DNA of 17,227 bases, from NCBI GenBank assembly GCA_950072105.1, contig CATMOE010000068.1:1-17227 (forward strand). Direction: 5' to 3'. This DNA comes from an uncultured Dehalococcoidia bacterium. GTDB taxonomy: Bacteria > Chloroflexota > Dehalococcoidia > Lucifugimonadales > UBA3495. Shown here piece by piece: positions 1 through 1,940 of the stretch (position 1 is the stretch's first letter; the number at the start of each line of letters is the position of its first letter). Under the pieces are notes generated by a model. That model searched no databases, was not told the DNA's origin, and worked only from the letters and a program-made list of their open reading frames with translations. The position numbers and the translations under genes are program-made.

Positions 1-324
1 ATGGCAGTGGACGACGACTTTACGTCCGGTATGTCCCAGCTCCCTTTGGATCGTGTCGGAGACCAGGTCCACCGTCTCTCGTTGACGTTCTACGTCTTCG
101 ACGTAAGGGTCTATGGGTATGCAAGCGTGCGCGTCATTGATGATCTCCTCGGCCACGTTGATGACGAAGCAACCTTCCTGGAGTAGGGCTTCCTCCGCCC
201 CACCCACGGATGTGATGGCTACGTCGCTGGTGACCCAGCTTATCGTGTCTACATCAAAATCTGCGGGTATCGGATAGTAGCGGGATATCTCTTTGAGTTG
301 CTCTTGTCTTTCTATGTTGTTCAT
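1..324 (-). CDS. Dual-specificity/protein-tyrosine phosphatase-like protein, 3' end runs off the window (missing from the ORF track)
   Basis: Translated by hand: GAGGTG RBS, then ATG at 324, open to position 1: MNNIERQEQLKEISRYYPIPADFDVDTISWVTSDVAITSVGGAEEALLQEGCFVINVAEEIINDAHACIPIDPYVEDVERQRETVDLVSDTIQRELGHTGRKVVVHCH... The VINVAEE and GRKVVVHC segments match the DSP fold leading into the HCx5R P-loop. The Arg of the motif lies outside the window. Confidence 0.75.
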   Translation of the reverse strand, partial: MNNIERQEQLKEISRYYPIPADFDVDTISWVTSDVAITSVGGAEEALLQEGCFVINVAEEIINDAHACIPIDPYVEDVERQRETVDLVSDTIQRELGHTGRKVVVHCH

Positions 325-424: not shown

Positions 425-829
425 CTACTCCAAGCCGCCGGCCTCGCGCCAGGCAAGGAGCGCTTCCCGGTCCCTCTCCCGTACTTCCCTTTCCCGTCTG
501 GCGCTCTCCTCGGCCTCTTTCTTCTCGCGCTCCATGCGAGCCCGGTATTCCGCCTGTATGGCGTCTTTCCGTTTCGTGGACAACCAGTCGCACTGCACCA
601 GCTCCTCCACCATGGCCTCGTATTCCGTGGGGTAGGAAGTGAGCAGGCTTCCGTACGACACGTGGGAGGCCCAACGGGGTTGAACACCGCAGACCAACTT
701 ATGCTCCAGATCAGTCAAGCCGGATATGCGCCCACGCTCGCTCCATGAGGTGTTCTTGATCAGTTCCCTGAGGAAATCCGTCTTCACCCCACGGATGTCG
801 TCCGCCTCGATCTCTACTCCATATGCCAT
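425..829 (-). CDS. Hypothetical protein (134 aa) with a charged coiled-coil C-terminus
   Basis: Strong RBS AAAGGAGG upstream of ATG at 829 (MAYGVEIEADD...); E/R/K-rich helical tail; co-oriented with its neighbours. Confidence 0.75.
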   Translation of the reverse strand: MAYGVEIEADDIRGVKTDFLRELIKNTSWSERGRISGLTDLEHKLVCGVQPRWASHVSYGSLLTSYPTEYEAMVEELVQCDWLSTKRKDAIQAEYRARMEREKKEAEESARREREVRERDREALLAWREAGGLE

Positions 830-942: not shown

Positions 943-1248
943 TCACCCCGGGTCTCCGCCGATGGTCCCGGACCGGGCCGGGCAAGAACCGGGGGACAGC
1001 CGTTCGTCTCGTTGCCCATCCTTCTGGCAGAGGAAGCAACTGAATATGTCTGGCTCCCTGATGCCGGGGTCAACCAGTACTATTACTGCATCTTTCAGTT
1101 CTTGCCTATGGATGGACTGGGCCAGGGCTTCGATATGCTCATGGCATGTAGGCATGCTTCTCGTCTCTGGCTGCTCGTGCGCCTCTCTCAAGAGTTTGGT
1201 GTAGGGGGTTTCGCCAGGATGTAGCCTCGTAAGCACTCTTCCTCTCAT
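943..1248 (-). CDS. Small hypothetical protein (101 aa), possible Zn-binding (CxxH...CxxC)
   Basis: ATGA start/stop overlap with the upstream ORF; contains TCHEH and SCFLC motifs. Confidence 0.5.
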   Translation of the reverse strand: MRGRVLTRLHPGETPYTKLLREAHEQPETRSMPTCHEHIEALAQSIHRQELKDAVIVLVDPGIREPDIFSCFLCQKDGQRDERLSPGSCPARSGTIGGDPG

Positions 1249-1436
1249 CCTTTCACCGCCCTGGCTACCTTGAGCGACTTGTTGGTGTTGATGACGGCCC
1301 GGGCCTCAGCTCCGCCGTCGTGGTCGTTGACCGTACGTTTCCTGCCGGGCTCACCGTCACCGACCCGTGGCGTTGGCGGCACCCTGTTTATGGGGCCGGT
1401 CTTGCCGGCCCTGGTCTCTACCGTGTATCCCATCAC
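1245..1436 (-). CDS. Small hypothetical protein (about 63 aa)
   Basis: GTGA/TGATG overlap with the upstream stop, with GGAGG just upstream; its own stop overlaps the next ATG. Confidence 0.45.
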   Translation of the reverse strand: MMGYTVETRAGKTGPINRVPPTPRVGDGEPGRKRTVNDHDGGAEARAVINTNKSLKVARAVKG

Positions 1437-1588
1437 TTCCTCCTTCGCTTGGATGATCTTAACTCTGCCTTTTCTACGTGCCGGCGCACCTCCGCCTCGG
1501 ACGCTTCCCGTATGTGGGTAGCCCCGATCCCGAAGTGGCCGTACCGGGACCTGAATCTCTTTTGGGACCGTCTATCAGCCCTGTACAT
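1433..1588 (-). CDS. Small basic hypothetical protein (51 aa), first ORF after the riboswitch
   Basis: AGGAGGT RBS before ATG at 1588; MYRADRRSQKRFRSRYGHFGIGATHIREASEAEVRRHVEKAELRSSKRRRK. Confidence 0.55.
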   Translation of the reverse strand: MYRADRRSQKRFRSRYGHFGIGATHIREASEAEVRRHVEKAELRSSKRRRK

Positions 1589-1666: not shown

Positions 1667-1709
1667 AAAAAGGAAAAGCCCCGCGCCGTCTCGATACGGA
1701 CGCGGGGCT
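1667..1709 (-). terminator. Intrinsic terminator forming the riboswitch expression platform
   Basis: Minus-strand RNA AGCCCCGCG-U-CCGU-AUCGAG-ACGG-CGCGGGGCU followed by UUUCCUUUUU. Confidence 0.9.
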
Positions 1710-1724
1710 GTAGGTCAGCTCGGC

Positions 1725-1836
1725 GTCCTTTCGTTGCCTATGCAACGCCCATCGTTCCCTTTCGGGCTGGGTCCACCTTTAGGACAAGGTTGGCGTGCGG
1801 TCAAAGGGCCAGGTCCCTCGCGCACCTCGGGATGGC
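1725..1836 (-). promoter_or_regulatory. SAM-clan riboswitch aptamer (SAM-I core plus P5/PK-2)
   Basis: RNA: CCAUC CCGAG GUGCG CGA GGG ACCUGG CCC UUUGAC CGCAC GCCAACCUU GUCCUA AAGGUGG AC CCAG CCC GAAA GGG AAC GAUGG G CGUUGC AUAG GCAACG AA AGGAC. Elements: P1 CCAUC/GAUGG, AUCnnGAG motif, kink-turn GA/GA, PK-1 CUGG/CCAG, P3 CAACC/GGUG, P4 with a GAAA loop, P5, and PK-2 GUCCU/AGGAC. Confidence 0.9.
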
Positions 1837-1911: not shown

Positions 1912-1940
1912 ATTATACATAACGGATCATGTTCTGTCAA
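1912..1940 (-). promoter_or_regulatory. Consensus sigma70/sigmaA promoter
   Basis: Minus strand TTGACA (1940-1935), 17-nt spacer, TATAAT (1917-1912). Predicted start near 1905, about 70 nt upstream of the aptamer. Confidence 0.85.

Follow-up and report, generated by a model that had tools for sequence, protein, structure and literature searches.

The SAM clan of riboswitches is the standard case of one binding core carried on different scaffolds, and the locus described here raises the question of whether a single natural RNA can carry the scaffold elements of several families at once. The window, by which we mean the whole analysed stretch of 17,227 nucleotides from an uncultured Dehalococcoidia bacterium (genome G000), contains on its minus strand, at 1835-1725, an element that a first-pass annotation had described as a SAM-clan riboswitch with the kink-turn, PK-1 and P4 together with P5 and PK-2, and as fitting none of the families SAM-I, SAM-IV and SAM-I/IV. 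Every helix named there could be located at this position, and the element is composed of the following parts.

1835-1831/1753-1749, minus strand: P1, 5 bp, whose 5' strand holds the SAM-contacting AUC
1826..1830, minus strand: J1/2 with the conserved pocket GA
1795..1825, minus strand: P2a (5 bp), kink-turn (1820-1818 with 1805-1800), P2b (3 bp) and L2
1812-1809 (L2)/1770-1767, minus strand: PK-1, 4 Watson-Crick pairs
1772..1794, minus strand: P3, with the CAACC/GGUG pocket and a short apical stem
1781..1785, minus strand: L3, the 5' strand of PK-2, compensated in the orthologous locus L301
1757..1766, minus strand: P4 hairpin, 3 bp, GAAA (GNRA) loop
1747-1742/1737-1732, minus strand: P5 hairpin, 6 Watson-Crick pairs, -6.8 kcal/mol
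1785-1781/1729-1725, minus strand: PK-2, 5 Watson-Crick pairs, whose 3' strand doubles as the 5' arm of the antiterminator

The SAM pocket (AUC/GAU in P1, GA in J1/2, CAACC/GGUG in P3) had been called intact, and all of its letters are found on the minus strand. Likewise, the kink-turn, the four pairs of PK-1, P4, the perfect P5 of six pairs at 1747-1732 and the complementarity between AGGAC and L3 (1729-1725/1785-1781) are present where they had been placed. G1836 and G1748 are unpaired and lie outside P1, the outer pair of P3 is a G1794.A1772 mismatch, and J3/4 consists of one base only. Judged from its letters, P2 follows the standard kink-turn pattern with a three-U bulge (1805-1803), G1802 and A1801 opposite A1818 and G1819, and C1800.C1820 as 3b.3n. 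L3 comprises 5-6 nt, of which 5 would have to pair, and the linker between P5 and PK-2 measures 2 nt; both are shorter than in most relatives, which counts against the proposed architecture. The swap to C-G of the pair below the pocket, which had been regarded as unusual, is indeed there, but it is not peculiar, because the same pair represents the Rfam SAM-I/IV consensus.

The published definitions, here and below taken from the accessible portions of the cited papers, separate the families as follows. SAM-IV has neither P4 nor a genuine kink-turn but a four-base turn (PMC6890682), while SAM-I/IV lacks PK-1 and has an undivided P2 (PMC6890682), on which the accessible part of PMC2864571 agrees, flagging one SAM-I/IV sequence with a possible internal loop. 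With SAM-I (RF00162), its best Rfam match, the window shares the pocket, the standard kink-turn in P2 (3b=C), PK-1 between L2 and J3/4, and P4. It differs from SAM-I in its P1 of approximately 5 bp instead of 8, in one additional base in L2 and after J1/2, in the added P5 and PK-2, in a predicted switch that does not use the P1 3' strand, in its score below 44.4 bits, and in 3b.3n = C.C. The latter is rare in SAM-I, where 3n is G in 95% of kink-turns, though it permits folding, as 3b=C allows ion-induced formation of the kink (PMC4382518). The short P1, the single-G linker, P5, the A-rich linker, PK-2, P4, the C-G pair under the pocket and AAGGUG are shared with SAM-I/IV (RF01725; env87, PDB 4L81), whereas the divided P2 with its kink-turn, the presence of PK-1 and a score below 41.1 bits set the window apart from it (PMC6890682, PMC2864571). 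Like SAM-IV (RF00634; cryo-EM structure in PMC6890682), the window combines PK-1, P5 and PK-2, and its P3 nearly abuts PK-1; unlike SAM-IV, it has P4 and a standard kink-turn in place of the four-base turn, and the SAM-IV model does not match it. By the definitions in PMC6890682, none of the three families accommodates the window, each being at odds with it in one defining feature. This agrees with the first-pass annotation. The predicted switch is SAM-I/IV-like and the 5' scaffold SAM-I-like. The further label "ancestral-like" found no support, since the core identity of full-architecture RNAs to the nearest SAM-I and to the nearest SAM-I/IV sequence was 0.861 each.

No Rfam model matches the window at gathering level. 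In the model comparison that had been suggested as a check, only SAM responded, i.e. RF00162 with 31.5 bits at the E-value level, below its cut-off of 44.4, whereas with E<=10 as the limit G000 contains no match to RF00634 (150 of 571 candidates scored) or RF01725 (cut-off 41.1 bits; 150 of 155 candidates scored). In contrast, the score of 19 of 20 relatives lies above the RF00162 cut-off, and two relatives (G487:C6 with 42.5 and L271 with 45.4 bits) also exceed that of RF01725, therefore such RNAs are probably already contained in the Rfam full-region lists. However, the RF00162 model comprises 108 positions and stops at P1, without P5 or PK-2. From covariation analysis of the SAM-I seed, one pseudoknot only has been reported (PMC7657543). 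Hence, the concern that existing family alignments might already hold this architecture applies to its members and not to its structure: relatives are annotated, but not with these predicted helices.

Relatives were collected by several searches. The SAM-I/IV model applied to 151 genomes of the phylum led to L015, which scores below the cut-off and displays the full architecture with PK-2 letters that differ from those of the window. L015 shares its PK-2 letters and P1/P5 junction with the SAM-I/IV RNAs L009, L011, L016 and L017 of the same phylum, as if the kink-turn/PK-1 module were the sole difference. Searching the genome collection with a pattern restricted to the 5' half gave at least 121 stretches; among the matches listed (113 unique parsed), at least 14 have a hairpin where SAM-I/IV carries P5, with AA behind it, and some were overlooked by the parser (such as L069, L076, L133). 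A pattern including the linker returned 52 metagenome stretches, 19 of them from the window's own lineage (counting L155, a duplicate of the window that was dropped), and P5 is present in 31 of the 39 unique parsed ones. These patterns demanded the kink-turn letters. A covariance model without the PK-2 pairs later found L228 and L231, both with an 8-pair PK-2 before metK, and L271. The titled records bearing P5 belong to Chloroflexota, Acidobacteriota, Actinomycetota and Patescibacteria, with one from Spirochaetales and one from a gammaproteobacterial bin. The full architecture recurs in the four phyla named first, and metK or methionine-pathway genes often lie downstream of it. When the element was compared with 100 relatives by BLAST, only two 26-base matches appeared, at the terminator end, and the order-level sample of 150 other genomes gave no match above 56.4 bits besides G000, the five loci examined there being without P5. 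G000 itself has one further SAM riboswitch, a canonical SAM-I upstream of an IF-2B-family gene, which we take to be mtnA. Its gene content suggests a host that is probably marine, a Chloroflexota bacterium of Dehalococcoidia type.

Several observations address whether the 3' additions are genuine. When the 40 bases 3' of P1 were shuffled 200,000 times, P5 (at least 6 pairs, adjoining P1) together with an exact L3 complement arose in 47 cases, and 26 of 199,659 random 40-mers from the genome contain the two elements; P5 and the PK-2 strand are not there by chance. Missing conservation or covariation of L3/AGGAC had been named as one finding that would overturn the proposal, and the homologues covary in PK-1, P5 and PK-2. 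In alignment A1, a plain MAFFT alignment of 20 RNAs that were picked partly by eye for a visible PK-2, 92.1% of the cells are paired compared to 33-45% in slid controls, and two-sided changes were found in all six PK-2 pairs, in 2/4 PK-1 pairs and in 3/4 P5 pairs. PK-1 cells are paired to 93.8%, PK-2 cells to only 69%. L029 and L118 (G489) are included in alignments A1 and A2 and in the counts, with no claim resting on those two alone.

In a permutation test, the tails of all 48 P5-bearing RNAs were dealt among clusters. With 22 clusters at 90% the values were 9.86 versus 8.04 (3/20,000), and with 13 clusters not selected on their 3' part the result was 20/20,000; at 80% clustering these became 110 and 51 of 20,000, and the count test weakened to 456-498/20,000. 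As controls, RNAs with P5 and without kink-turn (mostly SAM-I/IV) gave 0/20,000, whereas RNAs with kink-turn and without P5 (SAM-I) showed no signal (9,250/20,000). For the 15 kink-turn and P5 RNAs outside model building, a set that includes RNAs left out for lacking PK-2, the outcome was not significant (8.33 versus 8.04, 6,307/20,000). PK-1 was kept in 16/16 full-architecture RNAs, which were found by patterns requiring the kink-turn letters.

Nearer to the window, 12 close relatives vary in 16 columns, of which 14 are unpaired and two make up a single P1 pair; this distribution is as expected if the predicted fold is under selection. In type-B relatives, the end pair of P1 changes from C-G to U-A. 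The letters of kink-turn, P2b and PK-1 and the pocket bases G1828 and A1827 of J1/2 are invariant in 12/12 of the aligned close relatives. The stems of PK-2 and P5 are invariant as well, which is conservation, but not proof of pairing. One contig from run X6, whose loose end aligns gap-free with 1744-1715, contains compensatory changes at 1744/1735 and 1742/1737, i.e. in P5 in the originally proposed register. P5 in the usual family register, leaving AACGAA open, was considered too; it has only -1.4 kcal/mol, is contradicted by X6 and L301, and was rejected for this lineage.

The best evidence for the window's own predicted helices comes from L301. A model without the PK-2 pairs found the element in 1 of 149 other genomes of the family, G968 from another genus, and this copy is L301. 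In its PK-2, G1785-C1725 is replaced by U-A, U1784-A1726 by C-G and C1783-G1727 by U.G, two pairs are unchanged and a sixth pair is gained. P5 is again found in the register of the first-pass annotation, with 5 pairs, and PK-1 has only 3 of the 4 pairs. The antiterminator is rebuilt from altered letters (-10.5, beside a terminator of -18.3). By sequence and comparison, the pocket is intact and kink-turn, PK-1, P4, P5 and PK-2 are present, with pairing kept through sequence change, and the predicted architecture is real, conserved and distributed over several phyla.

How such an RNA could control transcription is suggested by three elements that the first-pass annotation did not contain.

1912..1940, minus strand: sigma-70-type promoter, 12/12 consensus, 17-nt spacer, start expected near 1905
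1698..1728 (1728-1723 with 1703-1698), minus strand: antiterminator hairpin, -17.3 kcal/mol
1667..1709 (hairpin 1709-1677), minus strand: intrinsic terminator (-26.0 kcal/mol) with a tail of 8 U in 10 bases

A sigma-70 scan of 1-2400 returned 3 sites compared to 1.2 expected, and only 1940-1912 scores 12/12. In RNA libraries of three studies, contigs span the leader and end at or below approximately 1903, a weak hint, as strand, start, end and level are not readable from contigs; two of the three read through the terminator. The terminator was not called by a simple scan because the scan rule permits no bulge, and the terminator finder overlooked many leaders. In P1-regulated switches the antiterminator takes the P1 3' strand (PMC5049679), unlike the window, in which it is built from the PK-2 strand. 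When the RNA was folded to 1697, P1-P5 and the antiterminator coexisted, hence P1 is not the switch strand, and the PK-2 3' strand can alternatively pair with the terminator 5' arm. The antiterminator is retained with altered letters in L144-type relatives and L301, and the three-way pattern of PK-2, antiterminator and terminator is also found in L144-type relatives and L107 and, by eye, in L228 and L231.

Taken together, the window probably encodes a riboswitch of the SAM-I/IV/SAM-I clan that has both peripheral modules and acts as an OFF switch of transcription. SAM is most likely the ligand, because the pocket is intact and 12 of the 28 scanned downstream proteins of relatives contain domains of the SAM, methionine or aspartate pathway (SAM synthetase, homoserine dehydrogenase, cobalamin-independent methionine synthase, PALP or MTHFR), the others being recombinases, YgjP-like peptidases, an AAA ATPase or proteins without assignment. 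For SAM-I/IV, the accessible part of PMC8525861 reports, after Trausch 2014, that SAM promotes PK-2 contacts, which are needed for regulation. In the window, kink-turn and PK-1 would pre-organise the core and SAM bound between P1 and P3 would lock PK-2; the strand 1729-1725, held in PK-2, would then keep the antiterminator blocked during terminator synthesis, and transcription would stop near 1670. At low SAM, the antiterminator would form and RNA polymerase would continue into the orphan genes downstream, a small accessory operon. The control is probably kinetic, because the completed terminator (-26.0) is calculated to exceed the antiterminator (-17.3) in stability and PK-2 is weak by itself (-6.9).

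This reading has to be weighed against others. The RNA could be a SAM-I/IV riboswitch in function, in which PK-2 switches and kink-turn and PK-1 are vestigial or incompatible with P4 and PK-2. The one-base J3/4, the mismatched outer pair of P3 and the loss of one PK-1 pair in L301 would be in line with this, as would the SAM-I/IV-like 3' half, in which the short P1 and the G linker are accompanied by a GC-AACGAA linker as in env87 (PMC5393176). However, SAM-IV forms PK-1 and PK-2 together with P3 running straight into PK-1 (PMC6890682), the invariance of kink-turn, P2b and PK-1 in 12/12 close relatives is hardly that of a vestige, and PK-1 is not only kept in 16/16 full-architecture RNAs but also covaries, though the search patterns required the kink-turn letters; we regard a purely SAM-I/IV-like function as improbable. 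Conversely, the element could be a SAM-I variant with an ordinary expression-platform hairpin, the L3 match being a by-product and PK-2 unformed. SAM-I is the best Rfam match, P5 without PK-2 is common (17/33 in A2) and PK-2 is weak beside the antiterminator, but in L301 the changes in L3, in the 3' strand and in the terminator arm go together, the chance rate is approximately 2 in 10,000, and, as P1 lies outside the antiterminator, it is not evident how SAM would act on the terminator if PK-2 did not form. This explanation appears quite improbable to us.

SAM-I variants with other ligands exist. The fold could be right and the lineage could nevertheless sense something other than SAM, or the element could be an unregulated relic on a mobile cassette. 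The orphan genes downstream of the window's copy, the YgjP-like peptidase in type-B relatives, the Rfam score below cut-off and the single occurrence among 149 other family genomes would fit such a view. In contrast, all pocket letters agree with the SAM-I and SAM-I/IV consensus, relatives sit upstream of metK and are read as controlling it, and with 14 of the 16 variable columns unpaired and the remaining two in one P1 pair, the variation is that expected under selection, which makes a foreign ligand or a relic most improbable.

The preferred reading, a SAM-responsive OFF switch, would place the following genes under its control or in its neighbourhood.

1433..1588, minus strand: ORF1, 51 aa, basic, good Shine-Dalgarno sequence, first gene under the switch
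1245..1433, minus strand: ORF2, 62 aa, start overlapping the ORF1 stop
943..1248, minus strand: ORF3, 101 aa, start overlapping the ORF2 stop
425..829, minus strand: ORF4, 134 aa, an orphan whose 15 database relatives are all 89-97% identical
1..324, minus strand: ORF5, truncated at the contig end, a possible phosphatase of the DSP/PTP type

The ORFs tried received no assignment from Pfam, PHROGs or Atlas, and in Pfam and PHROGs no link to SAM was found for the genes under the window's copy. The Atlas matches of ORF5 are phosphatases at 0.83-0.87, below the tool's 0.9 line, and the reading frame ends at the contig edge in VVVHCH, a stretch that resembles the DSP/PTP phosphatase active site. 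In L301, the first downstream ORF is 61% identical to ORF1 over 41 aa, and an ORF behind it is 49% identical to ORF3 over 72 aa. The window's cassette is considered accessory because of its patchy distribution and the different neighbours in G968. A prophage could not be shown, since ORF4 has no viral relative; of the viral pattern scans, two gave chance matches and one nothing. In L144, L151, L164, L185 and L187, the window's riboswitch lineage stands before a YgjP-like (PF01863) peptidase and not before orphan ORFs. Full-architecture riboswitches directly upstream of serine recombinases or AAA ATPases, i.e. in mobile-looking contexts, were seen in L089, L167, L191 and L251.

The variation among the relatives bears on the origin of the families. 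In A2, 16 of the 33 RNAs with kink-turn and P5 reach the PK-2 score and 17 remain below it; 6 of the latter show matches of 3 pairs in the expected position, where the loop rule may undercount, and the remainder have none. P5 without PK-2 includes several Rubrobacteria and Patescibacteria loci. The metK leaders L013, L054, L134, L227, L229 and L230 carry kink-turn, PK-1, P4, P5, a conserved P3 internal loop and long structured tails; PK-2 was sought in these six and none was placeable. L173:139-254 and L231:1501-1626 combine a kink-turn-type P2, PK-1, P5 and PK-2 without P4, which is the SAM-IV topology with a SAM-I turn. As P5 without PK-2 is common and L173 and L231 lack P4, the full architecture represents one point in a continuum. 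A bolder interpretation, which we offer tentatively and hold to be less probable than not, is that these RNAs form a fourth, so far unrecognised SAM-clan family with the full module set, whose members in several phyla are concealed by their annotation as SAM-I. SAM-I would have derived from it by loss of P5 and PK-2 and SAM-I/IV by loss of kink-turn and PK-1, the P5-only and P4-less forms would be intermediates, and in this lineage the RNA would have been recruited to SAM-gate a mobile orphan cassette. A natural RNA with both scaffolds, together with forms minus one part, makes the ancestry of SAM-I versus SAM-I/IV testable, and it could serve as a ready-made test case for additive effects of the modules on affinity. 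Trausch 2014 reportedly engineered a hybrid with both subdomains. In RNAs annotated as SAM-I, the aptamer may be cut approximately 30 bases short and the switch be assigned to P1 instead of PK-2. For SAM-I/IV, an ancestry possibly different from that of SAM-I has been discussed (PMC5393176). A natural RNA with all modules was not found in the accessible portions of the literature searched, which included PMC5393176, PMC12714719, PMC10907184, PMC11477058, PMC4684408 and PMC4371280; such RNAs could be mentioned beyond that scope, in Weinberg 2008, in Trausch 2014 or in the supplement of PMC2864571 (Additional files 1 and 7).

Some further observations were made at individual loci. In the metagenome loci L159 and L170, the latter upstream of an ADP-ribosylglycohydrolase gene, the pocket pair AUC/GAU of P1 is swapped to AUG/CAU. 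L069 contains a full-architecture SAM riboswitch (733-836) and a cobalamin riboswitch (1472-1662) about 640 bases apart on opposite strands. L158:931-1116, on the minus strand, joins a type-B upstream flank to the 3' half of a type-A aptamer and type-A genes, which points either to recombination at the riboswitch or to a chimeric assembly. An intergenic repeat of 100-135 bases with 78-80% identity occurs in four copies in the genome, three of them on the contig (window 2082-2229, 3730-3863 and 11820-11916; G000:C141 2449-2569). Finally, the plus strand of the window contains at 2295-2711 an ORF of 138 aa with a Ser/Thr kinase domain (PF00069, residues 16-110 only), which looks truncated or frameshifted.
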